A stretch of DNA of 64,000 nt, from NCBI GenBank assembly GCA_000146465.1, contig CP001951.1; one strand, given 5' to 3'. Positions within the stretch are counted from its first letter, which is position 1, and every line of letters starts with the position of its first letter. The notes below the pieces were generated by a model that worked only from the letters and a program-made list of their open reading frames with translations, did not search any database and had not been told where the DNA came from. Of this stretch, positions 11,782 through 55,008 are shown piece by piece. The position numbers were made by a program, and so were the translations under genes.

Positions 11782-11804
11782 TGGAGGGTCAGAAGAGCAA
11801 AGAT

Positions 11805-12725: not shown

Positions 12726-12729
12726 CACC

Positions 12730-35303: not shown

Positions 35304-35396
35304 GAAGGCTGGGACTAATAAAGTTGTGTTTCTTGTTACAAAGATAAGAGCGAGGAGGAGTTTTATTCTGGAATTTTTTGCCCTTTCAAAGGAGGC

Positions 35397-36251: not shown

Positions 36252-36345
36252 TTCCCCCAGGGAAACTCAAAAGCCCTGAAGATGAAATCAGACCTTCATA
36301 TCCAAATCTTTATTTTGACCAAATAAACGACCTAAAAGTATTATT

Positions 36346-37053
36346 TCACCATTTCATGGCAGTCTTCTTAGTTTTCTTGTCCGCCTTCTTTTCTACTCCA
36401 CAGGATTCCTCTTCAAGAATTCCATCGCTTTCTTCCAACTCGGCAACATATCTCTTCTTTCGATTCTGTTTCTTTTCTCTTTCTACTGCAGCCTTGTTTG
36501 CCAAATGGAATCTGTCCTTGAGCTCTGTCCCATAGATTCCACTCTCAAGCCTGAGCATGAGCTCGTCTCCTATGTTCTTCTCGAAGTTGATTTTGTTTAA
36601 AGTTTTGAGTGCTCGGAGCTTTTCTCTTCTATTCATCTTCTTTCTTCTCACCATATACTTTGTCTTCCCGTGCTCCTTGAAGCGCTCCAACCTTCGGAGA
36701 TACTGCGTGAGTTTCGAAAGCTTCTGCTTACATTTGTGGATAATCTTTTCATCCCAGAACTCAAGATTCTCTTCTATCTGCCTGAGAGCTTCTTCGTAGT
36801 TTGAAGACAGCTTGATCTCTTCGTAGACATCTCTAGGAACATGCACCCGCTCAGGCTCCTTGATAAACAGGAAAAGCTCTTCGCCCATTTCCCGGACTGT
36901 TGCATACTTCGAGTTGGCTAGTGGGCATGAAAATCTGTCGCACAACCCAGTTACATTGTTCTTGTTCCTGCACAGAGCGTTCTCTTCTGTCTTCATCTTG
37001 AACGAGCAATAGCCTTCTCCACCTATGTTCCTCCATATGCTCTCGTCGGACAT
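36346..37053 (-). CDS. MAK16: Mak16 (60S subunit biogenesis; Ribosomal_L28e/Mak16 family)
   Basis: The N-terminal IWRNIGGEGYCSFKMKTEENALCRNKNNVTGLCDRFSCPLANSKYATVRE matches the Mak16 cysteine cluster. The C-terminus is acidic and Lys-rich. Confidence 0.8.
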   Translation of the reverse strand: MSDESIWRNIGGEGYCSFKMKTEENALCRNKNNVTGLCDRFSCPLANSKYATVREMGEELFLFIKEPERVHVPRDVYEEIKLSSNYEEALRQIEENLEFWDEKIIHKCKQKLSKLTQYLRRLERFKEHGKTKYMVRRKKMNRREKLRALKTLNKINFEKNIGDELMLRLESGIYGTELKDRFHLANKAAVEREKKQNRKKRYVAELEESDGILEEESCGVEKKADKKTKKTAMKW

Positions 37054-37114
37054 CTATCGTGGGTACTGGGTCATACAAATATTAACCGAATATAGACTCA
37101 AACATCCCATGCTG

Positions 37115-37849
37115 CTAAAGGGATGAAGAGAAGGGGTGGCTTCTCAAGTGCTTGAATAAAAACCCATCTGGAAATATCTCTGCTACACTAGTGATTCCAA
37201 ACTTCTCTAAGAGGTCGGCTAGCTTACTTCGGACTAAAAGATGTCCCTTGTGAAGTCTTCCCTTTATGTGCCTGTCTATCTTCACTTTTGTATCACTTAA
37301 AACTATGCCTGCTCCGCACACAGTGCATCTCCCCATCCCTTCTCCGTTGTTCTTTGCATAATATGCTTCCTTGATTCTTTCCAGCTCCCATTTTACCTTC
37401 TCGCATTCATCAAAGGCGTGGCACGCTTCCTCCACTTTTCCTTCCATCCCAAGCTGCTCGATACTTTCATAAAGCTTCTTGAACAACTCCTCCTTTTCTT
37501 TTATTCTCTCAAGCAGAGGAAGATCTGAAGTATCAGAAGCAGTGCATTTCTTGGCAACATTTCGAACATCCAAAACAATCTCAACAAGTAAACGAAGGAG
37601 CTCCCATTCATACTCTTCAGCCCTCTTTCTTCCATTTTTGTTGTATTCAGCCCGGTAATATTCCTCATGGTTACCATATCTGCACTTTCCAATGCTTCTT
37701 CTCGTGTTGCGGAACAACTCAAATGGGCAGAACGAAGCAAGCATGTATATGCAGGTGTCTCTCCTCTCCGAAGATAGCTTGTCAGGGTTGTAGATGTCTC
37801 TTTCCCGCCCAAGAAGCATGTCAAGAACTTCCCTTGCTCGATCTGTCAT
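37115..37849 (-). CDS. LUC7: LUC7-like U1 snRNP protein
   Basis: The N-terminal DRAREVLDMLLGRERD...RDTCIYMLASFCPFELFRNTRRSIGKC..H.E is the Luc7 first zinc finger. A second C2H2-like CTVCGAGIV...H...H follows. The gene's upstream region is 37850..37994. Confidence 0.65.
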   Translation of the reverse strand: MTDRAREVLDMLLGRERDIYNPDKLSSERRDTCIYMLASFCPFELFRNTRRSIGKCRYGNHEEYYRAEYNKNGRKRAEEYEWELLRLLVEIVLDVRNVAKKCTASDTSDLPLLERIKEKEELFKKLYESIEQLGMEGKVEEACHAFDECEKVKWELERIKEAYYAKNNGEGMGRCTVCGAGIVLSDTKVKIDRHIKGRLHKGHLLVRSKLADLLEKFGITSVAEIFPDGFLFKHLRSHPFSSSL

Positions 37850-37994
37850 TCTAATGGGGGACGATACTTGAACATAGGTAAAGCGATGATGTCTTTCTCA
37901 GAGAGAAACAAGCTTTGTTGCTATTCTCCGTTTCCCGGAAGCCGTCATCCTTATCTAAAAACAATCGCATAGAACTTCTGGAGGCCCTTTTAGC

Positions 37995-39089
37995 CTAACC
38001 TGGTAATGATACAGAGGATCTCCCCCCAATCATAATAAACTCGCCACTCTTCAACTTTATGGAGCAGAAGCTCAAGGTCTTCTTCAGAAAAGAAACATAA
38101 TCATGTGGAAGTCTGGACGAGGTAAGGTCCAAATATCTTAGAGAACCTTTGAAGTGCATGATGACCTCATAGAAAGAAGCCCCATCAAAAGTACATCCAA
38201 CAAACCCAAGCCCAACCAAATTTGGGTATCTCAAATATACCGTCTTGAACATCCTACTGTCGATCTCCGCCTCTGTCACATGAAGCAGCCTCAAATTAGG
38301 AAGACTTTCCCTCATACACTTCAAGTCTCTTCCTCCAACATACATTATCTCTGCCATCTCGAGACCAAGGTTGGTAAGGCACTTCAGAAAGCCCATGCAT
38401 CGTACAGCGTTCACAAAAGAACACAGTCTTACATCCAAACAGACCCCTTCATCAATAATCTTAAACCATACCAACTCCCTTGAGATACACAGGTCAACGA
38501 AGGATTGAAAGTCAATTCCCATGTTGACAAGCTCTATCTTCTTCAATTTTGGCATCTCTTGGAGCTTTTTCATAAGGCCTTCTCTCCACTCATGGCATCC
38601 TAAGACATCAACATTCACTAGTGACACACTTACTAGTGACCCTACACCAAGAATATTCATAAGATCCTCATACGCCACAGTAGTGTCCCTCATAACTATT
38701 TCCTGCAGCACAGTGTCTATGTTGCTCCTCATCTTTACATTTGCAACTTTTAGAATGCTCAGCTTTCTAATGCATGTATTGTTGATCGAAGCCAAATCAA
38801 AAGAACACGAATCACAGACCCTCAGGACCCGAAGGTTGATAAAGGGGTGGAGGTCGACGTCAAATGCAGGCCTTGCCTCATAATACACCTTCCTCTCATA
38901 TGGTTTCCTCCACGGCGAAAGAATGGGTACTTCCCTTGGAGGCACAGATTTGCACAGAGCCTTTAGACGTCTATCGTATTTTCCAATCAGATATACCAAG
39001 TCCCTGGGAATCTGGAACTCAGGCTTGCATGTCTCTCTTGGAATCAAGCGCTTCTTGTTCCCGATCTTAAGATCAGCTATTCTTCTCAT
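37995..39089 (-). CDS. Leucine-rich-repeat (RNI-like / F-box-LRR-like) protein
   Basis: It has a periodic L..L..L..C/N spacing: LRVLRVCDSCSFDLASINNTCIRKLSILKVANV..., KLKKIELVNMGIDFQSFVDLCISRELVWFKIID, LKCLTNLGLEMAEI. I see no other recognisable domain. Confidence 0.35.
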   Translation of the reverse strand: MRRIADLKIGNKKRLIPRETCKPEFQIPRDLVYLIGKYDRRLKALCKSVPPREVPILSPWRKPYERKVYYEARPAFDVDLHPFINLRVLRVCDSCSFDLASINNTCIRKLSILKVANVKMRSNIDTVLQEIVMRDTTVAYEDLMNILGVGSLVSVSLVNVDVLGCHEWREGLMKKLQEMPKLKKIELVNMGIDFQSFVDLCISRELVWFKIIDEGVCLDVRLCSFVNAVRCMGFLKCLTNLGLEMAEIMYVGGRDLKCMRESLPNLRLLHVTEAEIDSRMFKTVYLRYPNLVGLGFVGCTFDGASFYEVIMHFKGSLRYLDLTSSRLPHDYVSFLKKTLSFCSIKLKSGEFIMIGGRSSVSLPG

Positions 39090-39148
39090 ACCTCAAGGGA
39101 TCTCCTCATCGGCATATTTCAGCATTCTTGCTTCTCCCCTGAAGCAGA

Positions 39149-39499
39149 ATGAGTCTAAAAGAGTCTGGAGTAATGGTTATGACAATAGGAGTGACTGTAT
39201 TCCTTGCTGGTGCCATTCTTCTGATGGACAGGGCGCTCATGATATCCGGGAATCTCCTGATAATCATAGGAATTGCTCTTCTTGCCCGGTCCAGGATGTT
39301 CTCCTTTCTGCGCCCAGAGAAAATGCAAGCCATGGTGATTTTTGGAATGGGAATTCTGTTTCAGGTTTACAAGCTCCTTGTCTTTGGCTTTTTTCTGGAG
39401 GTCTTGGGCCTGTTCCTTCTTCTGAAAGACAGCATCCCCACATTCAGGACTGTGCTAACAACCTTACTCTTTGGAAAGTTGCAGAAACTTATAAAGTAA
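39149..39499 (+). CDS. GOT1: Got1/Sft2-family Golgi transport membrane protein
   Basis: The 116-aa product has four predicted TM helices. FLAGAILLMDRALMISGNLLIIIGIALLARSRMFSFLRPEKMQAMVIFGMGILFQVYKLLVFGFFLEVLGLFLLL parallels yeast Got1 ([28 protein letters not shown]...). Confidence 0.6.
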   Translation: MSLKESGVMVMTIGVTVFLAGAILLMDRALMISGNLLIIIGIALLARSRMFSFLRPEKMQAMVIFGMGILFQVYKLLVFGFFLEVLGLFLLLKDSIPTFRTVLTTLLFGKLQKLIK

Positions 39500-39578
39500 A
39501 GATCTCGATTAAACACCAACGAATTTATTTCATTTACGAGGAAGACCAGAGCCCATCTCTGTGTTTCTTTTTGGATTC

Positions 39579-41366
39579 CTACTCCAATGAAGAACTGCTC
39601 TGAAGTTCTCCCCTTAAGATTTTCAGCCCATATGTATTGAGCATTCTTATAGCATCTACTTCCTCACGGTTGCATCGGTCTGCATCCCATCTATGCTTCC
39701 TCTTGAATATCTCAAGAACTTTCCCAAGACACCGATAGGCCTCCTTTACATCTATAAGCCCAATCATCAGCCTGTTGCAGAGCACATCGCATATCCTGAC
39801 AGCCATCTCGTTGTCTATGCAGTACTCCACTTCTTCGACAAGGTAGGTGTATTTCTCTGATAGGTGATCTTTCTTCTTCCCCCTTCTTCTATACTTTGCA
39901 AGCTTCAAAGCCATTGTTCCGTAGAATCTCGTAAGCCTCTCTGCAGTATCCTTTCCCACCCCTAGTTTCCTTTGGATCGAGACATATGTGTCTTCGGAAT
40001 ACCCATCACTCCCAAGTATCTGAACATATTTCGTCACACAAGGGCCCTTTGGCTTCAATGAAAACTCTCGGATTGCCAAGTCTATGGCATCTTCTGCTAT
40101 TTTTCTATATATCGTCCACTTCCCTCCTGTGACCGTTAGAAGTCCATTCTTCTCAATCTTGACAAAATGCTTCCTAACAATAGAACTTGTTTCCGAAACC
40201 TCGTCATCTTTGACCAGCGGTCTTATTCCTGTCCAGATAGCAGAGACCTCGTCCTTGACCAGCTTTAGGCCCTGCGAAGTGTATGCCCTAACCTCATGCA
40301 TCAGAAACTTTAAATCCTCCTTTGTTGGAGATGGCGACAACTCATTCTTTGCCTTGATGTCCGTGGCCCCCACAAGAGTCTTCCCCATCCATGGCATGAA
40401 AAAGGCTATTCTGTTGTCTCCTGTAAGAGGGTCCAGAAACCCCATTTCCTTGGGTGCATATTCCTTTGGAATAACAATATGTGTTCCCGAACTCTGGGAT
40501 ATAATCTCTCCCGTGCTTGAATCGCTCTTCTTCCTTAGATCATCTGCAAAGCTGCCTGTGCTATTGATAACCCCAAGTCCCTTAATCTCCATTTCCGAGC
40601 CTGTAATCCCGTCTTTGCATCGAACTCCCGTAATCTTTCCACCCGAGCTTATCAAGGATTTCACAGACAGGTAGTTCGTTGCCACTGCTCCATGATAAAC
40701 TGCAGTCATCACTAGCATCACATTGTTTCGAACATCGTCTTGCTGCCCATCAAAATAAACCATTGCTCCACAAAGATTCTTCTTGTTGACATGAGGAAAT
40801 ACATCTATAGCCTCCTTCCTTCCAATAAAATAGCTTCCTCCCAATGATTTCAGCCCTGAGATCCAGTCATAGAGCTTCAGCCCAATGTAATAGTAAGGAA
40901 TAAGTATCCTGCTGTATACCGGAACCATTATCTTGATGCTATTTGTAAGATATGGCGATATTCTAAACATGGTACTTCTTTCTTCCAACGCTTGCCAAAC
41001 AAGCTTGTACTGAGACCAATCTAAGTTACTAACTGCACTTGCAAGATACCTTACTCCACCATGGACAAGCTTGGTCGATTTCGAACTAGTTCCTGACCCG
41101 AAGTCCCCTGCATCTACCAGAGCTACTTTCAGCCCCCTCGTTGCTCCGTCAAGGGCACATCCCGCCCCACTGCTCCCTGCACCAACTATGATCAGATCAA
41201 ACACCTCCGACCGAAGTCTCTCCATCATGGCCTCTCTTGTAGGCACCTCCCAGTTCTTGCAGGGCTTCCTGATGCATTTCAGCCTACCCATTACAAATAT
41301 CTTCTTGTAGAGATATCTGAAGGCCATAAGTACCGAAAGAAACAAAACCACCAGTGCAGCCAGCAT
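39579..41366 (-). CDS. GUT2: FAD-dependent (mitochondrial/mitosomal-type) glycerol-3-phosphate dehydrogenase
   Basis: An N-terminal hydrophobic leader is followed by the FAD-binding fingerprint DLIIVGAGSSGAGCALDGATRGLKVALVDAGDFGSGTSSKSTKLVHGGVRYL. The C-terminal is a DAO_C-like domain. Confidence 0.85.
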   Translation of the reverse strand: MLAALVVLFLSVLMAFRYLYKKIFVMGRLKCIRKPCKNWEVPTREAMMERLRSEVFDLIIVGAGSSGAGCALDGATRGLKVALVDAGDFGSGTSSKSTKLVHGGVRYLASAVSNLDWSQYKLVWQALEERSTMFRISPYLTNSIKIMVPVYSRILIPYYYIGLKLYDWISGLKSLGGSYFIGRKEAIDVFPHVNKKNLCGAMVYFDGQQDDVRNNVMLVMTAVYHGAVATNYLSVKSLISSGGKITGVRCKDGITGSEMEIKGLGVINSTGSFADDLRKKSDSSTGEIISQSSGTHIVIPKEYAPKEMGFLDPLTGDNRIAFFMPWMGKTLVGATDIKAKNELSPSPTKEDLKFLMHEVRAYTSQGLKLVKDEVSAIWTGIRPLVKDDEVSETSSIVRKHFVKIEKNGLLTVTGGKWTIYRKIAEDAIDLAIREFSLKPKGPCVTKYVQILGSDGYSEDTYVSIQRKLGVGKDTAERLTRFYGTMALKLAKYRRRGKKKDHLSEKYTYLVEEVEYCIDNEMAVRICDVLCNRLMIGLIDVKEAYRCLGKVLEIFKRKHRWDADRCNREEVDAIRMLNTYGLKILRGELQSSSSLE

Positions 41367-41534
41367 CTATGGGCACGAACTCCTTCTTCTCTCTTATACT
41401 TCCGGACATCCAATTACTGGTTGACAGGTACAGAGACAAACAAGTATTTCAAGCCTCCTATGAAGAGGCCAATAAAACCGGGTTCGATTGGTCTTCTATC
41501 CCTCTACTGCAAATAAAAAAATTCCTAGAGGCCT

Positions 41535-42464
41535 TTGCAGATGGAAGGAATCAGGTTTGCTGATGTGCTACAATCCTTTGAAAAGAAAACAGAAGATGGC
41601 GAATATGTGAGTGTGGAAAGAGATTACAACGAAAGAAAGGTGATAGAAAACGATGTCAAGCGCACAGAGCTGCTGGGTGTGGACAAGAGGAATCAGGAGG
41701 CAATTAAGATTCTGAAGAGGCTGCTTTTTGTGGAGCTAGACAAGATTCCAGTTAAGTACACACAGGGGATGAGTGAGGTTGCGTCTGTGTTTGTCCTCTA
41801 CTACTTTCAGGAAATTGTTGAGGAAGAAGTGGCCAAGGGAATGTTTATCGCCGAGCGGGAAGAGAAGCCTGAGGGAGAAGCTTCGACGGCGGAAGGCTTT
41901 TCGGAGCATTTTATTGAGCTACCTGAAGAGGAAACCACAGAGCTTAAGAAATTTCTTTCAAGGCACAAGGACATAATAGCCAAGCTTGGGGTGGTGCTTA
42001 CAAACGTGTTCAAAAGAAAGCTGGAGCCATTAGTTGCAAACGACTTCAAGCTGTACAAGGAGAATATGAAGATATTTGTGGAGATGATGAAGAAGCGGGG
42101 AGTGAAGATTCCAGAGCTGGAAAGCTACAAGTTCATGGGATCTATTCTGACGTTTTTCTTAAGAAACCTGACGAAGATGGAGGATGTCCACAAGGTGTTT
42201 GAAATAATCTTGTCATGTCCCAACACCTGCCCGTTTCTTTTGTTAGTACTTTTTTATGGCCAGATCTCGAGTGGCAAGGCTATAGAGAGTATAAATAACA
42301 AGCTGTTCCCGAAGGTGGTTAAGCTTGAGGAAGAGTTTATTGAGACTCGGAAAAGAATCGAAAGCAAGGAGGTTTGCCCTTCAAAAAGGAAAATCATGCT
42401 GATAGGCGGAGTTATTAGTATAATCACCGCGGTTGTTGTGTATAAGATAACAAGAAAGGAATAA
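41535..42464 (+). CDS. TBC-domain Rab GTPase-activating protein with a C-terminal TM anchor
   Basis: The arginine-finger motif IENDVKRT (IxxDxxR) and the glutamine-finger region YTQGMSEVASVF (YxQ) are present. The C-terminus is hydrophobic (IMLIGGVISIITAVVVY). Confidence 0.55.
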   Translation: MQMEGIRFADVLQSFEKKTEDGEYVSVERDYNERKVIENDVKRTELLGVDKRNQEAIKILKRLLFVELDKIPVKYTQGMSEVASVFVLYYFQEIVEEEVAKGMFIAEREEKPEGEASTAEGFSEHFIELPEEETTELKKFLSRHKDIIAKLGVVLTNVFKRKLEPLVANDFKLYKENMKIFVEMMKKRGVKIPELESYKFMGSILTFFLRNLTKMEDVHKVFEIILSCPNTCPFLLLVLFYGQISSGKAIESINNKLFPKVVKLEEEFIETRKRIESKEVCPSKRKIMLIGGVISIITAVVVYKITRKE

Positions 42465-42520
42465 AGCCTTTTTCTCAAGTGCTGTTTGTCTTATAAACAA
42501 AAGAATTTTGTATGTATCAA

Positions 42521-42955
42521 GCCATGGCGGGTAGACAAAAATCAAATCAAGTTGACACCATTATTTAATCCCAAGAGTCTTGTCAATCTCCTCTGCAAAG
42601 TACTTCTCCACAAGCGCCCTTTTCTTCTTCGCTGTCGGCGTAAGCAGATCCGCGCCCTCAAAACTCTCAAACCCACGCCGCAGCACAACAACCTTCGACG
42701 GAATCTCAAGCCTCGTGATCCTCCTCTGCTTCACCAGCTTCTCTCCAACCTCCCGCAGGTGCTCCATAATCTCCTTCTCACTCCTCTTCTCGTCAGGACA
42801 CACAACAATCGCAATTATCCTCTCGCTCTCAGACCTCCGTGGAATAAACACATCCTGTATAATGTCTCCGTCAATGTACAGCGTCTCAAGCTTCTCAGGG
42901 TCAATGTACTCCCCCTGTGCAGTCTTGAATCCATCCTTCAGATGCCCAATCCCAG
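42521..42955. repeat. Left arm of a ~435-bp near-identical inverted repeat (a copy of the acyl-CoA synthetase 3' end plus about 40 bp of its 3' flank)
   Basis: The reverse complement of 42521..~42955 matches 46475..46910 nearly base for base, for example gccatggcgggtagacaaaaatcaaatcaagttgacacc at both outer ends. The encoded peptide LKDGFKTAQGEYIDPEKLETLYIDGDIIQDVFIPRRSESERIIAIVVCPDEK[R/K]SEKEIMEHLREVGEKLVKQRRITRLEIPSKV[V/I]VLRRGFESFEGADLLTPTAKKKRALVEKYFAEEIDKTLGIK differs at only 2 aa. Confidence 0.8.
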
Positions 42956-44651
42956 AAATCACCTTACTTATAGATATAGCCAAAATATCATCCGCATAGC
43001 TGCTCTTCCATTCAAGTATAACCTCCTGTCCAGACAGCTTGACATGGATGTTTCCAATCATAAGCCCAGACTCCACCTCAACAAGCTCCTCAAACCCATC
43101 CATAAGCACTTGCTTCAACAATACCCCTGTCGAGTTGTATGGGATCCTTTGCCTCTCGTATATGCTCATCTCCTTGTATTTAGATTCCATCAAATCGTCT
43201 CTCTTGTATATCCTAATGTCGTTCTCTGTCCCTACGATAATCCCCTCAAATTCCCCCTCAGCATTGGTAAATATTTTAGCCTCATTATCCTTGACTAGAT
43301 CAAATCCTGCCTCTTCTCCATTCCGTAGAGTATAAAGCTCCATCTCAATCCCTTTCTTTTCGTTTCTCTGCTGAATCACATTCCTGAGTCTCTGCATCTC
43401 ATTCATCTCTCCATGCACAAAGAAGAGGTGCCGAGGTTGGCATTCTTCAATGAACTGGCTATTTTGTGTAAAATCCACATGCGCACTGAATGAGATGTAT
43501 TCCACCGACATGTTAAGCCGAAGCCTCTTTCCATTCAACGCCTCTATCTCCTTGGGCTCGCTGAGTATCTCCTTTGCAAGTGTTCCGTCTACACAGTATC
43601 CAGGTATTATCACGGCATTCTTACTGTCCGAACACCATCGCTCAAAGAGATCTCTTGAAAGCCCGCTCTGCAGCATTCCCGGGCTGGCCATGATCACACA
43701 TGGACCCTCATCATCAAAAGAGTCTATTCCCTTCAGATTCTTGACATATTTGAATGCAAACGGGTTTCGGACCAAGCTTAGTTTTTGAATCCTCTCGTTC
43801 ATCATTCCTATGTAGGTCTGATATACCCCCATACACCTTTTTGCCAATGCAGATGCATAGTAGATTGGGATCTTCTGCAGAGAAGCATTTGAGCTCCAAT
43901 GTTCCTCAAGAATAAGAAGAAGCTCCTGTGCCCTTCCAAGAGCAAACACCGGAAGTAGACATCTCCCCCCTCTTTGAACAACATTCTGAACAATGCTTGT
44001 AAATCGGCCCTCCCTCTCTGATCTCGGAAGATGGCATTGCACTCCATATGTCGATTCCGTTATAAGTGCATCGATTTTGCATCCAGGAGACTCTGCAGCC
44101 TTAAGATGTCTGTCTTCTTCCCTACTGAAATCCCCGGTATAAAGAATCTTGCTCTTCTCTATTTCAACCAAAAACATGGCTGCCCCTAGTACATGCCCTG
44201 CATTCAATGCCTTAACCTTAATCCCCTTCACATTGACTTCTTGATGGTAATCGATAGGTATGATTCTGTCGTAGCATTTAACCAGGTCTGTTTCGGTGTA
44301 GAAGTCTGCATCCGATGCTGCATTGATCAGCCGGATATAATCGTTCAGAAGCCATTTAAGAATGGCCTTTGTAGGATGTGTCATATAAACCTTTCCTTTG
44401 AAGCTTGTCTTTTCCGTTAGAAACGGCAGTGCCGCTGCATGGTCTAGGTGGAAGTGTGTAACAAATATGGCATCGATCTTCGAAAGATCTACAAGATCCA
44501 GAAAAGGAAGGGATGCCACGCCGGTGTATGCCGGATGAACCCCGCAGTCCAGCATTATAGTCCTGCCCCCACACTCGACAATAACGCATGATCTTCCAAC
44601 TTCGTTTCCTGCCCCAAGAGGCATCACTTTTATCTTCTCGCTAGAGAACAT
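42561..44651 (-). CDS. YSH1: Cleavage and polyadenylation specificity factor 73-kDa endonuclease (CPSF73/Ysh1) with a chimeric C-terminus derived from the acyl-CoA synthetase tail
   Basis: Metallo-beta-lactamase (VTHFHLDHAAALPF, HxHxDH), beta-CASP and RMMBL regions are present (IKVMPLGAGNEVGRSCVIVECGGRTIMLDCGVHP...). The last ~140 codons (42561..~42955) are the inverted-repeat copy of the acyl-CoA synthetase C-terminus. Confidence 0.8.
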   Translation of the reverse strand: MFSSEKIKVMPLGAGNEVGRSCVIVECGGRTIMLDCGVHPAYTGVASLPFLDLVDLSKIDAIFVTHFHLDHAAALPFLTEKTSFKGKVYMTHPTKAILKWLLNDYIRLINAASDADFYTETDLVKCYDRIIPIDYHQEVNVKGIKVKALNAGHVLGAAMFLVEIEKSKILYTGDFSREEDRHLKAAESPGCKIDALITESTYGVQCHLPRSEREGRFTSIVQNVVQRGGRCLLPVFALGRAQELLLILEEHWSSNASLQKIPIYYASALAKRCMGVYQTYIGMMNERIQKLSLVRNPFAFKYVKNLKGIDSFDDEGPCVIMASPGMLQSGLSRDLFERWCSDSKNAVIIPGYCVDGTLAKEILSEPKEIEALNGKRLRLNMSVEYISFSAHVDFTQNSQFIEECQPRHLFFVHGEMNEMQRLRNVIQQRNEKKGIEMELYTLRNGEEAGFDLVKDNEAKIFTNAEGEFEGIIVGTENDIRIYKRDDLMESKYKEMSIYERQRIPYNSTGVLLKQVLMDGFEELVEVESGLMIGNIHVKLSGQEVILEWKSSYADDILAISISKVISGIGHLKDGFKTAQGEYIDPEKLETLYIDGDIIQDVFIPRRSESERIIAIVVCPDEKRSEKEIMEHLREVGEKLVKQRRITRLEIPSKVVVLRRGFESFEGADLLTPTAKKKRALVEKYFAEEIDKTLGIK

Positions 44652-44722
44652 TCTAGGGCGATCAGAGCAAGTTGAATTTCTTGCAACTGGTTTCTTTCAG
44701 AATAAAAGATAAATGTAGAAGT

Positions 44723-44742
44723 CTATTCATATTAATGAATAG
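44723..44742. promoter_or_regulatory. Perfect 8-bp hairpin with a 4-nt loop in the divergent CPSF73/acyl-CoA-synthetase promoter
   Basis: ctattcat-atta-atgaatag (44723..44742), inside the 147-bp AT-rich spacer 44652..44798. Confidence 0.2.
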
Positions 44743-44798
44743 TATTACTATAAGCAGTAAATTGGAAACTATATAATAATAAATGTTATACAATTAGG

Positions 44799-46868
44799 AT
44801 GGGAACAATCAGGTTTATATCTATAATCTCTTTTCTTAGTGATATGATGATTTGGTGCATTGATGGACCTGGTAAAGAAGCCAAGGATAATCTTAAGGCT
44901 CCTCTATTGACAAGTGATAATAAGCCCAATGATTTTAAGGCATCACCTATTCCATGTAGTGAAAGTACCGTTAGAATGTCTCGTTTCAAGGATATGATGA
45001 ACAGAATAAGGATTATGGAAGATGGATCTGTGCAACACGTCAACTTCCAGAGAGATGTTGTGTGTACCCCAGACGGCTCAAAAACCATCCTCGAGCTCCT
45101 TCTCTCGCGCTGTGCAACAATGGGCAACGAGCCCTTCCTCGGCACAATCGTCGGCAACAAGGTCAAGTACAAGACTGCAAACGACATCCGCAGAGAGGCA
45201 GAGGGCCTTGCCTCGTTCCTGGCACAGACCACAAGCCCCGGAGACATGGTGGGCATCTACTCTGTCAACAGATACGAGTGGATAGTTGCCGAGATGGCAA
45301 CTTACATGTGCGGATGCACCAATGTCCCCCTGTACTCCATGTTCTCGCCCGAGAACGTCCAGATGATTCTGAAGGAGACGGGGATGAAGGTGTGTGTTGC
45401 GTCTCGGGAAAAGGCCGAGCAGCTGGTTGAGACTGTGCTGGAGGGCAGGGAGACGATGCTCGAGCACATTGTGCTGATGGACAAGGCGCCCGAGCTGGTG
45501 GCGAGGCTTGAGAATGCCGGGCTGCGGGGACATTACCTCAAGGAAGTGATTTCTCATCGGGGAGGGATAACCAAGGAAAGGTACTCGAAGGGGGAGGATC
45601 TTGCAACGATATGCTATACAAGCGGGACATCTGGGTGTCCCAAGGGGGTGATGCTGACACACCGGAACTTTATCTCTGGGGTTTCTGGGATATTCCGTGG
45701 GTCTCGGAAGGAAGAGATGGTGTCTCTTGACAAGGAGGATGTGTATCTGTCGTACCTGCCGCTAGCACATGTGATGGAGAGGATATGTGTCAACATCTCG
45801 ATGGCATATGGGTGCAAGATAGTGTTCTACAGGGGGAACATGAAGGAGATCAAGGAGGACTATCTTGTGGCGAAGCCGACATTTATTATTTCTGTGCCGC
45901 GGGTGCTGAATCTGTTCAAGGACAAGATTGAGGAGAAGGTGAGGCAGAAGAACTTTGTGCTGCGATGGATTTTCCGGGGGGCCCTCCGGTACAAGATGTG
46001 GAGAGTGGGGCGAGGAGAGCTGAAGAGCAAGTTTGCAGACTGGCTTGTGTTCAACAGGATTGCAAAGGAGTTTGGAGGGCGGATTTCGCGGATTCTGTGT
46101 GGGTCTGCACCTCTTCGGAAGGAAGTTCTGGTGTACATGCAGGCTGTGCTCTCGTGCCGGATTATCCAAGGATATGGGCAGACGGAGAATGTAGGGTCGG
46201 GGATTGTGCAGCCGCTGGACACGAACCTGTACGACAATGTTGGGATTCCCTTTCCGTCGAACGAGGTGAAGCTTGGAGAGATACCAGCGGAGCTTGGGAG
46301 CGAGTATGGGCGCCGGTATCCTGGAAGGAAGTTTGGAGAGATTCTGTTGCGCGGGGACAATGTGACGCAGGGGTACTTCAAGAGGCCTGAGGAGACGGCG
46401 GAGCTGTTTACTAAGGACGGGTGGCTCCGGACGGGGGACATTGGGATGTTTGATGTGTCGACGGGGATGTTTTCTGTGATTGGGCGTCTGAAGGATGGAT
46501 TCAAGACTGCACAGGGGGAGTACATTGACCCTGAGAAGCTTGAGACGCTGTACATTGACGGAGACATTATACAGGATGTGTTTATTCCACGGAGGTCTGA
46601 GAGCGAGAGGATAATTGCGATTGTTGTGTGTCCTGACGAGAAGAAGAGTGAGAAGGAGATTATGGAGCACCTGCGGGAGGTTGGAGAGAAGCTGGTGAAG
46701 CAGAGGAGGATCACGAGGCTTGAGATTCCGTCGAAGGTTATTGTGCTGCGGCGTGGGTTTGAGAGTTTTGAGGGCGCGGATCTGCTTACGCCGACAGCGA
46801 AGAAGAAAAGGGCGCTTGTGGAGAAGTACTTTGCAGAGGAGATTGACAAGACTCTTGGGATTAAATAA
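44799..46868 (+). CDS. Long-chain fatty-acid-CoA ligase (acyl-CoA synthetase, AMP-binding family)
   Basis: AMP-binding motif ICYTSGTSGCPKGVMLTHRNFISG, the ACSL linker and gate region, YGQTENVG, and the C-terminal lid GWLRTGDIGMFD...IGRLKDGFKTAQGEYIDPEKLE typical of ACSL. The first ~70 codons are AT-rich with a TM-like segment; the true start may be an internal ATG. The body from ~45030 is markedly GC-rich. Confidence 0.8.
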   Translation: MGTIRFISIISFLSDMMIWCIDGPGKEAKDNLKAPLLTSDNKPNDFKASPIPCSESTVRMSRFKDMMNRIRIMEDGSVQHVNFQRDVVCTPDGSKTILELLLSRCATMGNEPFLGTIVGNKVKYKTANDIRREAEGLASFLAQTTSPGDMVGIYSVNRYEWIVAEMATYMCGCTNVPLYSMFSPENVQMILKETGMKVCVASREKAEQLVETVLEGRETMLEHIVLMDKAPELVARLENAGLRGHYLKEVISHRGGITKERYSKGEDLATICYTSGTSGCPKGVMLTHRNFISGVSGIFRGSRKEEMVSLDKEDVYLSYLPLAHVMERICVNISMAYGCKIVFYRGNMKEIKEDYLVAKPTFIISVPRVLNLFKDKIEEKVRQKNFVLRWIFRGALRYKMWRVGRGELKSKFADWLVFNRIAKEFGGRISRILCGSAPLRKEVLVYMQAVLSCRIIQGYGQTENVGSGIVQPLDTNLYDNVGIPFPSNEVKLGEIPAELGSEYGRRYPGRKFGEILLRGDNVTQGYFKRPEETAELFTKDGWLRTGDIGMFDVSTGMFSVIGRLKDGFKTAQGEYIDPEKLETLYIDGDIIQDVFIPRRSESERIIAIVVCPDEKKSEKEIMEHLREVGEKLVKQRRITRLEIPSKVIVLRRGFESFEGADLLTPTAKKKRALVEKYFAEEIDKTLGIK

Positions 46869-46910
46869 TGGTGTCAACTTGATTTGATTTTTGTCTACCC
46901 GCCATGGCTC
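46475..46910. repeat. Right arm of the ~435-bp inverted repeat (native acyl-CoA synthetase 3' end plus 3' flank)
   Basis: See the left arm. This copy is in its native ACSL coding context, where the C-terminal lid domain is canonical, so it is the likely source copy. Confidence 0.8.
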
Positions 46911-46941
46911 TGATAATTTTTGTCTACCTTAAAACCCTGAA

Positions 46942-49248
46942 ATGGAAAATTCGTTGAATAGCAAAAGAGTCAAATCGGAGAAGCTTAAAATAGATATGGT
47001 CCGAGGCCAAATAGAAGAATACACCAATCTTCTCAAGCTCCAACATGTAAATGTCGATGAGCTGATGGAAAAGATAGCGTCTGGATGGTGCGAAGACATG
47101 ACCAGAAAGGAAATTGTAGATTACTGTAGTGAAACCGCAGCCTCGATGATCACCAAACATCCTGAGTATGGATGGATCTCGTCCCGAATCATTGTCTCAT
47201 ATATCCACGATATCACCATGGATTCTTTTGTTGAAAAGATCAAATACATACAAAAGTACCAGGGAACGATTTCTGAAGAGATGTACAAGATAATAGTGGA
47301 GAATGCAGAAATAATTGATTCGATTATAGACTACGAAAAAGATTTCCTTTTCAACTACTTTGGAATACTTACCTTGATGAAATCTTATCTGATAAAGGTG
47401 GGGGAGGAGATTGTTGAAAGACCCCAGGATGTATTTATGAGGACAGCCCTTCAAGTCCATAAGTCTGACTTTGGGAAGGTCAAGGAGACATATGAAATGC
47501 TGTCAAGACACTACTTTACCCATGCAACACCGACCTTGTACAATTCATGTCTCAAGGAAGCACAATTGGCCAGCTGTTTTCTCATAACACCTCGGGAAGA
47601 TTCGATTGAGGGGGTATACCACATGATCAACCAAACGGCAATTATAACTAAGTACTCTGGGGGCATAGGACTCAATCTTCATGGGATTAGGTCGAAGGGA
47701 AGCCCTCTGAAAAGAACTGGGGGAAAGAGTAATGGAATCATTCCGCTGATCCAGGTTTTGAATGCCACAAAGAGATACATCAATCAGGGTGCCGAAAGAA
47801 GACCCGGGTCGATAGCCATTTATCTTGAGCCTTGGCATATGGAGATATTTGACTTTCTGGACCTTAGGAAGAACACAGGCCCTGAGGAATTCCGGGCAAG
47901 GGACATCTTCATTGCACTATGGATCAACGATCTATTTATGGAAAGGGTCAAGAACAATGAGGAATGGTCGTTGTTTTGCCCTAGCCAGGCTGTTGGGCTG
48001 AATGAGACATGGGGAGAGGAGTTCAATGCCTTGTACTGCAAGTACGAGAAGACAATCAGCAGGACGGTGGTTCCTGCGCAAAAGTTGTGGAAGGCCATAA
48101 TCGAGGCGCAGATCGAAACCGGAACACCTTACATGTGTTATAAGGATGCATGCAACAGACTTAGCAATCAGCAGCATCTTGGAACTATTAAATCATCGAA
48201 CCTTTGTGCAGAGATAGTTGAATATTCCTCTGGAGAAGAGACCTCGGTGTGTAATCTTGGATCTATTTCTCTTCCTATGTTTGTCAAGAACAAGAAGTTT
48301 GACTTTGAATCTCTTAAAGACGTGGTCCGGATACTTACAATCAACCTCAACAAGGTGATCGACTTCAACTACTATCCTGTGGAAGAGTCCAAGAGATCGA
48401 ATATGAAGCACCGGCCGATCGGAATAGGAGTGCAGGGTCTAGCAGATTTGTTTGCAATTCTAAGGCTTCCGTTTGATAGCGATGAGGCCCGTAATCTGAA
48501 CAAAGACATCTTTGAGACGATGTACTATTCGGCACTGGAGACCTCGTGCAAGTTGGCCGAGAAAGAGGGGCCGTTTGAGTCATATGAAGGATCTCCCATA
48601 AGTAAAGGGATCTTTCACTTTGAGCTGGCAGGCAAGAAGGCTTCCAACAACTGGGACTGGGAAGGGCTTCGGGAAAGAATTAAGAAGTATGGAACCCGGA
48701 ATAGCCTTCTGATTGCGCTAATGCCGACTGCAGGAACGTCGCAGATCTTTGGAAACAACGAGACATTTGAGCCGTTCATATCGAACATATATACCAGGAG
48801 AACACATGCTGGGGAATTTCAGATTGTTAATAAACATCTGATTAACGATCTTTCCGAGCTGGGGCTGTGGTCATATGAGATGAAGAACCTGATTATTGAA
48901 AACGAAGGATCTATCCAGAACATCACAACGATTCCAAAAAAGATCAGAGACATATACAAGACAGCATGGGAAATAAAGATGAAGGCTGTGATAGACCTGG
49001 CGGCGGATAGACAGGTGTTTGTTGACCAATCGCAGTCTTTGAACGTCTTTGTGGCAAAGCCGACCTACTCACAGCTCACATCGATGCACTTCTACGGATA
49101 TCATTGCGGTCTGAAGACGGGAATGTACTATTTGAGAACAAGGCCGATAACATCTGCAATCAAGTTTACAGTGGACAAGAAGCTTGCAGAGAAAACCTTA
49201 TCCTCCATGAATGATACGGACGAGCCCTGTTCGATGTGCTCCTCTTGA
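46942..49248 (+). CDS. RNR1: Ribonucleoside-diphosphate reductase large subunit (RNR1)
   Basis: ATP-cone N-terminus. ATPTLYNSCL, CFLITPREDSIEGVY, KYSGGIGLNLHGIRSKGS, NGIIPLIQVLNATKRYINQG and the C-terminal CxxC tail (CSMCSS). Confidence 0.9.
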   Translation: MENSLNSKRVKSEKLKIDMVRGQIEEYTNLLKLQHVNVDELMEKIASGWCEDMTRKEIVDYCSETAASMITKHPEYGWISSRIIVSYIHDITMDSFVEKIKYIQKYQGTISEEMYKIIVENAEIIDSIIDYEKDFLFNYFGILTLMKSYLIKVGEEIVERPQDVFMRTALQVHKSDFGKVKETYEMLSRHYFTHATPTLYNSCLKEAQLASCFLITPREDSIEGVYHMINQTAIITKYSGGIGLNLHGIRSKGSPLKRTGGKSNGIIPLIQVLNATKRYINQGAERRPGSIAIYLEPWHMEIFDFLDLRKNTGPEEFRARDIFIALWINDLFMERVKNNEEWSLFCPSQAVGLNETWGEEFNALYCKYEKTISRTVVPAQKLWKAIIEAQIETGTPYMCYKDACNRLSNQQHLGTIKSSNLCAEIVEYSSGEETSVCNLGSISLPMFVKNKKFDFESLKDVVRILTINLNKVIDFNYYPVEESKRSNMKHRPIGIGVQGLADLFAILRLPFDSDEARNLNKDIFETMYYSALETSCKLAEKEGPFESYEGSPISKGIFHFELAGKKASNNWDWEGLRERIKKYGTRNSLLIALMPTAGTSQIFGNNETFEPFISNIYTRRTHAGEFQIVNKHLINDLSELGLWSYEMKNLIIENEGSIQNITTIPKKIRDIYKTAWEIKMKAVIDLAADRQVFVDQSQSLNVFVAKPTYSQLTSMHFYGYHCGLKTGMYYLRTRPITSAIKFTVDKKLAEKTLSSMNDTDEPCSMCSS

Positions 49249-49337
49249 TTAAACTTCGTTGCTTTCTTTTCAGCCTTGTTTTTCTGTTTGAACGCCGTAC
49301 CTCCAGCAGATGTATTGAGGAGCTTTAAAACCCATAG

Positions 49338-50921
49338 ATGAACTTTTTCAAGGAAGGAGAGAGACTGAAGGCAATCTTCGACGACCTGGTGAAGCAGCAC
49401 AAAAAGAGTAAGAGGAAGGTTGTTGATAACAAGAACGTGAGCAAGGAGATGCTACAGACATATGAAGAGAACAGGATGAAGCTGATGCATTTTTTCGAGA
49501 TGCACTCGAGATTTATTAGGCCAAGGAAGAACAGTATTGGAATCTTTTCTGTGGATGACTTTGTCAAAGTCAAAACCTCGGAATCGATGATGTTTCCCAA
49601 AAAGGAAGATTTTAGGAGGGAAGGGAGACCAGGAATGCCATTTTCTGTTGGAAGGCCTATGCAGTGGGGAGGAATGAATGGGAGAGAGCCTTTTTACATT
49701 CAGGATAGGATTCCCACACAAGGATGGAAGGGGTGTGGTCGGGATGGAAAGCCGATGTGGATGGGGTTTGGAGGGTACCCGGGGGCTCCTGGGCAGGAAA
49801 GCATATTACGAGGCTGGGGTCCTATGAACTTCCTGCATCAGAATAGCAGAGGGTTTTTTGGGGCCGGGTCATATGAAATGGAAGGTGGGAGTTTTGAAGG
49901 AGAACATGGTAGCTATGGATATGGAATTCGGATGGCACCGGGGCCAGGAGTTAGAAGACGGTTTGATATTGGAGGAGGGGGCCCAAGTGATGGGTACGGT
50001 ATGTTTCCTAAGAGAAGACCACCTGACATGGACTCCAAGACAGCAGAAGTATCTAAAATGGGTTTTCCACATGAGAGAGAGGAAATAGGAAGGAATGGAG
50101 TTCCACCATCGATGAGTTGGACGGGTAGTAGGAGGCCATACATCCCTACGGAAAGGAGAGAGGAAATGATAAGGCCTCCCTTCTACTATCCGATTTTAGG
50201 GGGATACGGCTATCCTGTCCATGGAAATGGTACGTTTCCTGGTGTTCCAGTGGAAGAGACCTTTGCAACAGCATGCTCGATATATCCAGAAACATCCAGG
50301 AAAGAACAACACTTTGTAAAATACCCACAAAGCTTTCCAGGTAGTGATGTGATAGACTGGATGCCGGAGAAGAAAAGTTCTAAGACGAAGACACCAAAGG
50401 AAACGAAAGTGCCAACCTCTCCAAAAGAAAACGAAAGCTCTATTTCAGGGAAAGAGGATCCCTGGAGGCTAGACATAACAACAGACTTAGAGAAAAGAAA
50501 GTTGTGTGATGAAGATCAGGGCAGAGACGAGAATAAGGAAAAGGCTTCTTTCGCAGACTTCCCAGATGGCAAGAACAACTCCCATGGGGAACTTTCCACA
50601 AACCACGGGAAGGATCTGAATATAATGACCATAGAGGATCTAATTGGAGACAAGACGATTGACAAGGATGCAAAAGAGTTCATCTATGAACTTTGCGATG
50701 GATTTGTCGATCATATTATCCATATGTCATGTGCATTGGCTTACCACAGGAAAAAAAATACTGTGGAGGTCTGTGATGTCAAATTAGCATTGAAAACAGA
50801 GGTTGGGATCGAGCTCCCCTCGGATGGGGATTCGGAAGAGGAGTCTTCCTTAAGTCCCGGAAGAGAAGTGAAGGTTGTAAGAAATGAAGAGAAACAGCCC
50901 CGGATGGCCAAAAAAGACTAG
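49338..50921 (+). CDS. Protein with a C-terminal TAF12-like histone-fold domain and a long Gly/Pro/Met-rich N-terminal region
   Basis: The C-terminal KEFIYELCDGFVDHIIHMSCALAYHRKKNTVEVCDVKLALKTEVGIELP parallels the TAF12 histone fold (...[34 protein letters not shown]...). The N-terminal 300 aa is low-complexity (GGMNGREPF, GFGGYPGAPGQ). Confidence 0.4.
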   Translation: MNFFKEGERLKAIFDDLVKQHKKSKRKVVDNKNVSKEMLQTYEENRMKLMHFFEMHSRFIRPRKNSIGIFSVDDFVKVKTSESMMFPKKEDFRREGRPGMPFSVGRPMQWGGMNGREPFYIQDRIPTQGWKGCGRDGKPMWMGFGGYPGAPGQESILRGWGPMNFLHQNSRGFFGAGSYEMEGGSFEGEHGSYGYGIRMAPGPGVRRRFDIGGGGPSDGYGMFPKRRPPDMDSKTAEVSKMGFPHEREEIGRNGVPPSMSWTGSRRPYIPTERREEMIRPPFYYPILGGYGYPVHGNGTFPGVPVEETFATACSIYPETSRKEQHFVKYPQSFPGSDVIDWMPEKKSSKTKTPKETKVPTSPKENESSISGKEDPWRLDITTDLEKRKLCDEDQGRDENKEKASFADFPDGKNNSHGELSTNHGKDLNIMTIEDLIGDKTIDKDAKEFIYELCDGFVDHIIHMSCALAYHRKKNTVEVCDVKLALKTEVGIELPSDGDSEEESSLSPGREVKVVRNEEKQPRMAKKD

Positions 50922-50993
50922 GAGAGACGAAGTCTTTCTTTTGGGAGAAGGTATGTTTTGTTTCTAAAAAGTTTTAACCCTCTATTTCTGGAG

Positions 50994-51470
50994 ATGGCAA
51001 CAACTAAAGGCAAAAATAGCAGGCTGGCAATTGAGATGGAGTCTATGTCGAGAGACCCACCACCAGGATGCAGCGCAAGCCCAATAAGCCCCAACGAACT
51101 AGACAAGTGGATTGCAGTTATAACAGGGCCCCCAGGATCGGTCTATGAGGATGGGATATTTGAACTTCTGATTGTCTTTCCTCCATTTTATCCATTCAGC
51201 CCGCCAAAGGTGACGTTCAAGACACGGATATTCCATTGCAACATATTTGAAAAGAATATCTGCCTAGATATCTTAAAGGACCAGTGGAGCCCAGCACTAA
51301 CGATAGATAAGATCCTCTTGTCCATAGTTTCCCTGCTCCAGGATCCCAATCCCGACGATCCTCTGAACAAGGAGGCAGCCGATCTGTACCGAAACAATAG
51401 GATGGAGTACAATAGGAAAGCAAAGGAATGGGTGCGGCTTCATGCCTCGAAACATAAGTCTGAGGAATAA
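50994..51470 (+). CDS. UBC4: Ubiquitin-conjugating enzyme E2 of the UBC4/UBC5 (UbcH5) class
   Basis: The track ORF starts at 50958; the ATG for MATTKGK is at 50994, preceded by aaaaagttttaaCCC. RDPPPGCSA, YPFSPPKVTFKTRIFH(C)NI, active-site NICLDILKDQWSPALTIDKILLSIVSLLQDPNPDDPL and EWVRLHA all match. The HPN tripeptide reads HCN here. Confidence 0.85.
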   Translation: MATTKGKNSRLAIEMESMSRDPPPGCSASPISPNELDKWIAVITGPPGSVYEDGIFELLIVFPPFYPFSPPKVTFKTRIFHCNIFEKNICLDILKDQWSPALTIDKILLSIVSLLQDPNPDDPLNKEAADLYRNNRMEYNRKAKEWVRLHASKHKSEE

Positions 51471-51586
51471 GAAGTTTCTTGATGGAACAGATGATTCTGT
51501 TATATTAAATTGTTCTGTTTATTTCTGTACAACCAGGATGCCAAAACAAGGAGCAAAGGAAAATTCTGTATGAAAACAGAGTCCCT

Positions 51587-52135
51587 ATGATTTTTGGAGA
51601 AGCAGGCACATGGCTCCTCGAGGACCTCAAGTCAAGTGTCCTTAAACCCTATAGACATGCAGAGATAAAGGCAATACAAGGAGAAAATGGAGATCTGGAC
51701 AAGAAGATGGAGGAGATTAGAAGGGCAGCAGGGTCTGGGATATCTGAGGAGCTCTCAGTGAACTACGTCATGATGAAGCATTTCAAAGAGCGTAACGAAA
51801 GAATAGTCAGGAGTTACAAGTTCCATCGAATCCTGGGTCTTTTCGACTGCTTTTTTGGCAGAAAGGAAACTTCTGGAATACTTTCTCCTGAAGAGGAGGA
51901 ATGTGCAGAGGAATACTACGCAACTCTCAAGGAGTATCTTGAGCCTTTTGCTGACATGGACTTTACCACGGAAACACCGCCCACACAGTTTTTTGTGCAG
52001 GTGATCACGCTGGAGGACTGTGGAGTGGTGATGGATGAGGGAGACCTCATAGAACTCAAGAAGGACAGAATATACTTTATCAAGAAGAGTTCTATTGCTC
52101 ATCTGATCAGCGATGGACTTGTACGAATCATTTAA
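51587..52135 (+). CDS. SLD5: GINS complex subunit, Sld5-like
   Basis: The C-terminal PPTQFFVQVITLEDCGVVMDEGDLIELKKDRIYFIKKSSIAHLISDGLVRII mirrors the Sld5 C-terminus (PPDFVRVL..G..L.....V.L.R.S.HLLRRSDVEPLI..G.LE.I). Confidence 0.45.
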   Translation: MIFGEAGTWLLEDLKSSVLKPYRHAEIKAIQGENGDLDKKMEEIRRAAGSGISEELSVNYVMMKHFKERNERIVRSYKFHRILGLFDCFFGRKETSGILSPEEEECAEEYYATLKEYLEPFADMDFTTETPPTQFFVQVITLEDCGVVMDEGDLIELKKDRIYFIKKSSIAHLISDGLVRII

Positions 52136-52144
52136 TAAAATCAC

Positions 52145-52681
52145 CTATGGGATGTCTACAGAAGATTCCGGGCCTATCTTTTTACTGATAATGCACATTG
52201 CTTCCTCTGAAGTCAATCCTCCTTCCTCTTCTCCAATGGTATGGTAATTATCTCCAAAGAGGCCCTCAACCTCCTCTTCAACAACTCCGAAGATCTCGCA
52301 TTCAATATTCTCCTTGATCTTGTCTTCGTCGTATCCTCTCTCCTTAAGTCTCTTGTAAAGAACTTCAACAGGAGCCTTCATCAGAAAGACTAAATCAAAG
52401 GCTATATTGGCTGCCATCCCACAACTGTGGGTGTCTATGATGTATGACTCCTTGCCAAGGAGATATCCTTCTAGAGATTTTCTCACCACTTCATCATCGA
52501 AGAGAAGCGATTTGTATGTCTCGCTGTACTCCTCATATAGGTTGTTTTCCTCGATGTACCGGCTCATCTCGACATGGGGAATCCCAAATCTTTTCGATAT
52601 GTCCAACGAAAAAGTTGTCTTTCCTACTCCAGGCGTCCCAGTAACTAGAATCTTCATTGGGAGGAGTGTGGAGACATTCAA
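52145..52681 (-). CDS. FAP7: Adenylate kinase isoenzyme 6 / Fap7 (18S rRNA maturation NTPase)
   Basis: P-loop ILVTGTPGVGKTT, IIDTHSCGM and the Fap7-like C-terminus with LYKRLKERGYDEDKIKENIECEIFGVV. Confidence 0.8.
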   Translation of the reverse strand: MNVSTLLPMKILVTGTPGVGKTTFSLDISKRFGIPHVEMSRYIEENNLYEEYSETYKSLLFDDEVVRKSLEGYLLGKESYIIDTHSCGMAANIAFDLVFLMKAPVEVLYKRLKERGYDEDKIKENIECEIFGVVEEEVEGLFGDNYHTIGEEEGGLTSEEAMCIISKKIGPESSVDIP

Positions 52682-52687
52682 ATAAAT

Positions 52688-53959: not shown

Positions 53960-54001
53960 ATTCTCTCCAGAACACTGTATTTATTACACATCTTTCAAGC
54001 A

Positions 54002-54907: not shown

Positions 54908-55008
54908 ACTCGTTATTTTTACTTGTTTTAGATGCAGAGACAGTTATCAAAAGGCTACAAGACATGGAAAGAAAGAGCCCGTAGTAACAACTATCAAAAG
55001 AAGACAAT

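Follow-up and report, generated by a model that had tools for sequence, protein, structure and literature searches.

Arm-to-arm gene conversion in large palindromes is known from those of the human Y chromosome and from plastid inverted repeats, which occur as flip-flop isomers. Other systems against which an inverted repeat can be set are the site-specific invertible segments of the Hin/Gin/FLP type and the collapsed-repeat misassemblies of short-read genomes finished by the polymerase chain reaction (PCR). The locus described here surrounds the gene for CPSF73 (Ysh1), and in the Encephalitozoon cuniculi protein removal of the domain CTD3 abolishes Symplekin binding (PMC10688271). The 64-kb stretch of DNA under analysis (the window) belongs to the 2010 assembly of Encephalitozoon intestinalis ATCC 50506 (Corradi et al.), and in it the CPSF73 open reading frame (ORF) ends in the C-terminus of a long-chain acyl-CoA synthetase (ACSL) encoded next to it on the opposite strand. 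The comparisons reported below indicate that this CPSF73::ACSL chimera is very probably an artefact of repeat collapse or finishing in the 2010 assembly, and the true structure is a near-perfect inverted repeat of about 1.93 kb, formed by two ACSL genes around a 2.3-kb CPSF73 spacer.

A repeat search within positions 41000-48500 found one inverted repeat, with arms at 42520-42961 and 46468-46909 (442 nt each, 99% complementary, 3,506 nt between them). Such a repeat cannot be attributed to chance, and it bears out the near-identical inverted duplication of about 435 bp that an earlier inspection of the window (the sequence-only reading) had placed there. The same is true of the identical string at both outer ends, which is the 39-nt gccatggcgggtagacaaaaatcaaatcaagttgacacc, and of the 147-bp region between the divergent starts of the two genes. 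Base-by-base comparison located the near-perfect portion of the left arm at 42520-42942, with two mismatches (42689/46740 and 42784/46645) that lead to the protein differences R/K and V/I, while the final ~19 nt (42943-42961) carry three extra mismatches, at 42943, 42952 and 42959, and make up the junction or microhomology zone. Besides 126 codons and the stop, the ACSL-derived stretch of the left arm takes in 41 bp of 3' flank; the flank had been estimated well at about 40 bp, and the figure of some 140 codons has to be lowered. Likewise, of the earlier count of about 3 nt and two amino acid differences, R/K and V/I stand, but a third residue differs between the CPSF73 tail and ACSL at the junction (His570 in place of Arg). 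Apart from R/K and V/I, the last 126 residues of the chimeric ORF are the end of the neighbouring ACSL (amino acids 564-689, C-terminal of its PF00501 match); the ORF ends in LKDGFKTAQGEY...TLGIK, and its C-terminus reads ...ISGIGHLKDGFKTAQGEY...TLGIK.

The locus was then set against its counterpart (L001) in the telomere-to-telomere (T2T) long-read assembly of the same strain, GCA_024399295.1. There the gene order is RabGAP-like (+), ACSL-A of 689 aa (-), CPSF73 of 643 aa (+), ACSL-B of 623 aa (+) and ribonucleotide reductase (RNR) (+). The ACSL pair (L001 7738-13932) forms an inverted repeat whose arms, 1,921 nt each, are nearly 100% identical; the 2,342-nt spacer between them contains the 5' 190 nt of ACSL-A, the divergent intergenic region of 147 bp, CPSF73 and, downstream of it, a further 73 bp. 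By BLAST, window 34778-42958 corresponds to L001 1-8181, window 42944-46915 to L001 11708-7738 in reverse, and window 44989-54915 to L001 12006-21932. The window is thus the L001 locus with its middle inverted and with 1,776 nt missing (11709-13484). The missing segment begins with CPSF73 codons 570-643 and their stop, continues through the 73-bp spacer and extends 1,479 nt into ACSL-B; all of its 1,776 bp are without a second counterpart in the window and 297 bp are without any. Consistently, neither CPSF73 amino acids 566-643 nor these 297 nt (coding sequence plus spacer) were found anywhere in the 64 kb. The left arm aligns to L001 7738-8165 and 13504-13932 and, on this comparison, appears to be the only remnant in the window of the 1.93-kb ACSL-B arm: it is the outer stump of ACSL-B, neither a recent duplication nor a gene fusion. 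The window therefore has fewer copies of a repeat than the long-read assembly of this strain and has lost the unique sequence adjacent to it, as expected of a collapsed repeat. Among the options left by the sequence-only reading was an assembly artefact at a repeat, and the intact locus in the T2T assembly favours this option.

The rest of the CPSF73 gene is normal. Codons 1-569 of the window are 100% identical to the 643-aa E. intestinalis protein, the Pfam families PF00753/PF16661, PF10996 and PF07521 match amino acids 18-432, and PDB 6v4x_H is matched with E=1e-181. Its match to PF11718 (CPSF73-100_C) ends at amino acid 570, and amino acids 571-696 are ACSL. In the 643-aa form, PDB 8BA1 (CTD1-CTD2) aligns to amino acids 450-566, and PDB 8B7T (CTD3) aligns to amino acids 567-641 of that form only. 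The segment replaced in the chimera is thus exactly CTD3, which is missing from the window ORF but present in the T2T copy of this strain. A genuine loss of this domain would be expected to be harmful in what is apparently the sole CPSF73 gene, taken as essential.

The chimera is confined to the 2010 record. The window ORF is identical over 696/696 residues to ADM12410.1/XP_003073770.1 of E. intestinalis ATCC 50506, which is encoded on a record of 234,890 bp. In a protein search of 5.8 billion sequences its best match was the 643-aa E. intestinalis CPSF3 ('cleavage and polyadenylation specificity factor 3'; 100% identity, 82% of the query), and no other protein covered more than 88% of the 696-aa query; the cluster at 90% has two members, the 643-aa and the 696-aa forms. 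The former occurs in UTX46244.1 (T2T), in three KAL73... entries from three other isolates and in one Logan contig, whereas exact look-up of the 696-aa form in the contig index found nothing, absence from Logan being weak negative evidence. The comparison with related microsporidia, which had been proposed as a check, showed a normal end everywhere: orthologues from E. cuniculi, E. hellem, E. romaleae and Ordospora have 641-644 aa and their own conserved C-terminus. This supports the earlier view that the ACSL copy is native and the CPSF73 tail foreign. The statement that CPSF73 ends in an ACSL tail holds for the sequence as given, but not as biology, given a normal 643-aa CPSF73 and a second ACSL in the T2T assembly of the same strain, and the idea of a real recent fusion is not sustained.

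A related proposal, the main one of the sequence-only reading, takes the chimera at face value, as the graft onto CPSF73 of an ACSL 3' end that was truly and recently duplicated in inverted orientation; the functional endonuclease would then end in an ACSL lid domain, and the two-gene unit would be a 4.4-kb invertible cassette with 442-bp arms. The sequence as given and the near-identity of the arms agree with it, as does the occurrence of the inter-ACSL segment in both orientations in related assemblies. However, every complete assembly has arms of 1.9 kb made up of two full ACSL genes, the native C-terminus of CPSF73 is present in all other data, those of the same strain included, and the unit contains neither a recombinase gene nor other dedicated machinery; this proposal can hardly be credited.

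The join itself is informative on how the artefact may have arisen. When the window is aligned to L001, the matches to the ACSL arm and to CPSF73 have exactly 42944-42958 in common, a 15-nt microhomology, TTTCTG[G/T]GATTGGGC, which is common to CPSF73 and ACSL and is followed by CTGAAG in both, so that the join falls in an imperfect microhomology of ~20 nt, TTTCTG.GATTGGGC(...)CTGAAG. On the sense strand the junction reads TTTCTGGGATTGGGC-TGAAGA in CPSF73, TTTCTGTGATTGGGCGTCTGAAGGA in ACSL and TTTCTGGGATTGGGCATCTGAAGGA in the window. The base at 42943 is private to the window: it makes the codon CAT (His), where every ACSL copy has CGT (Arg), and matches neither parent. Both genes read the microhomology in the same frame, as S-G/V-I-G-(R)-L-K, and it is because of this coincidence that the fusion is in frame. 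Since an ACSL arm lies downstream of CPSF73, and on its strand, whichever way the spacer is turned, the two microhomology patches are direct repeats 1.8 kb apart in both arrangements. Direct repeats at such a distance are a classic substrate for deletion, in vivo or in the PCR tube.

The alternative of a deletion in vivo has accordingly to be considered: a real microhomology-mediated loss of 1.78 kb in the 2010 stock, in a sub-population or in one homologue, would have removed CPSF73 CTD3, the spacer and most of ACSL-B and left an in-frame CPSF73::ACSL allele. A junction between direct microhomology copies of ~20 nt is what replication slippage or microhomology-mediated end joining (MMEJ) produces, the two assemblies derive from different culture lineages of ATCC 50506, and error-prone repair could account for the private base at the junction. 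The distribution of the other private bases fits less well. Over the 20.1 kb compared, window and T2T assembly show private differences only at 42689, 42784 and 42943, all of them transitions inside the 424-nt left arm, with 0 in the ~19.7 kb elsewhere; two of them thus lie 159 and 254 nt off the junction, amid surroundings equal to the T2T sequence, and the changes at 42689 and 42784 are found in no other ACSL copy. By our own arithmetic, made with no tool, the probability that all three fall in the left arm is ~(424/20124)^3, roughly 1e-5. An error density of ~0.7% limited to the stump is the pattern expected of one cloned nested-PCR molecule and not of genomic DNA of the same strain.

The alleles of the remaining ACSL speak against a deletion in vivo as well. 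The only ACSL of the window has the A-specific 5' end, then the B-type alleles GGAAGAT (45020, 45023) and then A-type again at 45159, and so mixes paralogue-specific variants as collapsed repeats do. Five other E. intestinalis data sets show GGAGGAC on the A copy, recognised by the ACSL-A-specific 5' end, and have GGAAGAT solely on the B copy, recognised by its link to the CPSF73-downstream spacer. The sites 45020/45023 sit 32-35 nt within the repeat, beyond the phasing reach of 31-bp reads at k=19. B-type alleles on an A-linked copy imply that the 2010 reads held an inner arm of ACSL-B which the assembly lost, and hence that this DNA was in the sample. Taken together with the loss of the Symplekin-binding domain from an apparently unique CPSF73 gene, regarded as essential, and with the absence of the chimera from every other E. 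intestinalis data set, this makes a real deletion unlikely.

An artefact of collapse and finishing is consistent with how the 2010 assembly was made. It was built with Velvet (hash 19) from 31-bp paired Illumina reads with a 337-bp insert, and its 137 scaffolds were joined by cloned nested PCR and Sanger sequencing, finishing being guided by E. cuniculi. Two arms of 1.93 kb could not have been resolved by such reads and would have collapsed to a single ACSL. A sequence that skips the 1,776 bp between the microhomology copies would then have closed the gap from the RabGAP flank to CPSF73. Velvet alone was considered as the source of this sequence and rejected, as the CPSF73 and ACSL sequences have no 19-mer in common. 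Most likely, a template-switch (jumping) PCR product was cloned and sequenced; at 0.5 kb it would have out-competed the true amplicon of 2.3 kb. The join, in frame by chance, would finally have been annotated as a 696-aa CPSF73::ACSL protein.

Some points weigh against this account. With only 8-15 nt in common, two sequences cannot be joined by Velvet on its own at k=19, and the PCR chimera is a step that we infer; the junction was judged from the assembled sequence; a genuine slippage or MMEJ event would also leave a deletion flanked by microhomology; and the DNA of 2010 and the assembly of 2023 come from different laboratory stocks of ATCC 50506. In addition, the locus is mentioned neither in the 2010 paper nor in the T2T paper, and the latter has no passage on misassembly or inversion.

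The inverted ACSL pair is not particular to E. intestinalis. The assemblies examined also included E. cuniculi GB-M1, EcunIII-L and ATCC 50602, E. hellem ATCC 50504, ATCC 50604 and GCA_029215505.1, and E. romaleae. All of these Encephalitozoon assemblies have CPSF73 between an ACSL-A of ~690 aa (673 aa in E. romaleae), which is divergent from it, and a downstream ACSL-B of ~623 aa. Arms measure 1,926-1,947 nt in those assemblies (1,921 nt in the E. intestinalis T2T assembly) and are 99.7-100% identical within a genome and 75-82% identical between species; such likeness within genomes along with divergence between species indicates that the arms evolve in concert through gene conversion. In Ordospora colligata there is no repeat, and the only ACSL lies downstream of CPSF73. 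These sequences would be read most simply as the outcome of one inverted ACSL duplication in the ancestor of Encephalitozoon, with gene conversion acting continuously between the arms ever since. The properties of a palindrome are thus found in the true locus and not in the 442-bp pair of the window.

Outside the repeat, ACSL-A has an N-terminal extension of ~66 aa (window 44799-44988, its first 190 nt, residues 1-63) with a hydrophobic stretch, MGTIRFISIISFLSDMMIWCI..., which is absent from ACSL-B and from Ordospora. The extension is homologous in four species, about 40-47% identical over the aligned N-terminal region, and fast-evolving; it may be a membrane anchor or a targeting signal that sets apart two otherwise identical enzymes.

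The spacer was found in two orientations. With R for the RabGAP-like gene, A for ACSL-A, B for ACSL-B and C for CPSF73, the order is R, B(-), C(-), A(+), RNR in the three E. cuniculi assemblies, in E. hellem ATCC 50504 and GCA_029215505.1, in E. romaleae and in the window. Two long-read assemblies, those of E. intestinalis ATCC 50506 and E. hellem ATCC 50604, have the order R, A(-), C(+), B(+), RNR. Within E. hellem, a clean inversion whose breakpoints fall in the arms separates ATCC 50604 from the other two assemblies, and long-read assemblies also show opposite orientations of the 2.3-kb spacer in E. intestinalis and E. cuniculi. The notion of an invertible cassette consequently survives in part: spacer orientation does differ between assemblies, but the arms are ACSL genes of 1.93 kb and not the 442-bp pair. 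The orientation seen in the window was rejected as evidence, given that PCR across an inverted repeat can yield either isomer through overlap extension and that finishing was guided by E. cuniculi.

Illumina drafts from 2025 of three other E. intestinalis isolates break at the repeat (L002 and L003 at position 12040; L005 with a 2,412-bp contig), and two of the three attach the arm to opposite flanks. These drafts were likewise set aside as evidence that E. intestinalis has both orientations. They are unsafe in this respect because the repeat is exactly where their contigs stop, and merging relied on 100% overlap with the reference as a guide, so that the links between arm and spacer may be arbitrary. 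The ACSL repeat still limits short-read assemblies, and draft joins there should not be trusted.

On balance, an ancestral inverted ACSL duplication with arms homogenised by conversion and recurrent flips of the spacer, between species, between E. hellem strains and possibly within a strain, is favoured with moderate confidence. It is held with the same confidence, and jointly with that reading, that the chimera flags a real ACSL palindrome around CPSF73 which was found described nowhere; full-text literature searches gave no description of the locus, of the inversion or of ECU10_0890/0900/0910.

XP_003073770.1 (UniProt E0S9M5, 'Endoribonuclease YSH1') should accordingly be regarded as the product of a misassembly in a RefSeq genome, and the fusion is not to be taken as biology. 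The 2010 gene set has a CPSF73 without CTD3 and misses one ACSL paralogue, which affects users of that assembly in gene counts ('smallest nuclear genome'), orthology and domain-fusion screens. A conserved 1.9-kb palindrome with arms evolving in concert and two spacer orientations is direct evidence that homologous recombination is active in the cores of the chromosomes of these reduced genomes. Should both isomers coexist in a culture, the locus would be a palindrome of the flip-flop kind within the core of a nuclear genome that ranks among the smallest of eukaryotes, and mitotic or meiotic recombination could be read out from it directly in an organism without a known sexual cycle.

Table 1. 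Features of the CPSF73/ACSL locus in the window
Feature	Position	Strand	Basis or remark
Left flanking gene, RabGAP-TBC-like	41535..42464	+	Orientation marker
Left arm: outer 423 nt of ACSL-B (last 126 codons, stop, 41 bp 3' flank)	42520..42942	-	
Chimeric ORF, 696 aa	42561..44651	-	Annotated in 2010 record (ADM12410.1 / XP_003073770.1)
Chimeric junction	42943..42958	-	Overlap of window alignments to L001 ACSL arm and L001 CPSF73
Native CPSF73/Ysh1 part, codons 1-569	42944..44651	-	Metallo-beta-lactamase, beta-CASP, RMMBL, CTD1, CTD2
Divergent intergenic region CPSF73/ACSL-A, 147 bp	44652..44798	.	Colinear with L001 9854-10000
ACSL-A, long-chain acyl-CoA synthetase, 689 aa	44799..46868	+	PF00501 AMP-binding, aa 122-527
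True 1.92-kb arm, full extent	44989..46909	+	Collapsed consensus of both arms in window
Right arm as visible in window	46468..46909	+	Repeat search, base comparison
Right flanking gene, RNR large subunit	46942..49248	+	Orientation marker

The features of the locus are collected in Table 1. Assignment of the plus-strand gene to ACSL follows from its PF00501 match and from homologues named long-chain fatty acid CoA ligase, and the intergenic region belongs to the unique spacer of the true inverted repeat. Further upstream, a glycerol-3-phosphate dehydrogenase-like ORF (39579-41366, minus strand) has 595 aa in the window and in one draft and is called with 582 aa in the T2T annotation, which looks like a choice of start codon rather than a difference in sequence.

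Compared with the CPSF73/Ysh1 of E. cuniculi (8BA1, 8B7T), the window protein is normal through CTD2 (residues 1-569) and differs in having ACSL residues 564-689 instead of the Symplekin-binding CTD3. With collapsed-repeat misassemblies of short-read, PCR-finished genomes it shares one copy where the long-read assembly has two, a mosaic copy, the loss of adjacent unique sequence (the CPSF73 3' end and the spacer) and a join at microhomology with base errors of the type found in clones; it differs in that the error is in frame, was passed on to RefSeq and UniProt (E0S9M5) and mimics a domain fusion. Resemblance to site-specific invertible segments of the Hin/Gin/FLP type is lacking, as the genes in and around the unit are only RabGAP-like, CPSF73, ACSL and RNR, and the arms of the true locus are whole genes and not short recombination sites. 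The human Y palindromes and the plastid inverted repeats are matched by arms that are nearly or fully identical within a genome and by a spacer present in both orientations with breakpoints inside the arms. Unlike these, the ACSL palindrome lies in the core of a nuclear genome of 2.3-2.9 Mb, the smallest known among eukaryotes (PMC4355639, PMC10158259), its arms are protein-coding ACSL paralogues and its spacer carries CPSF73.

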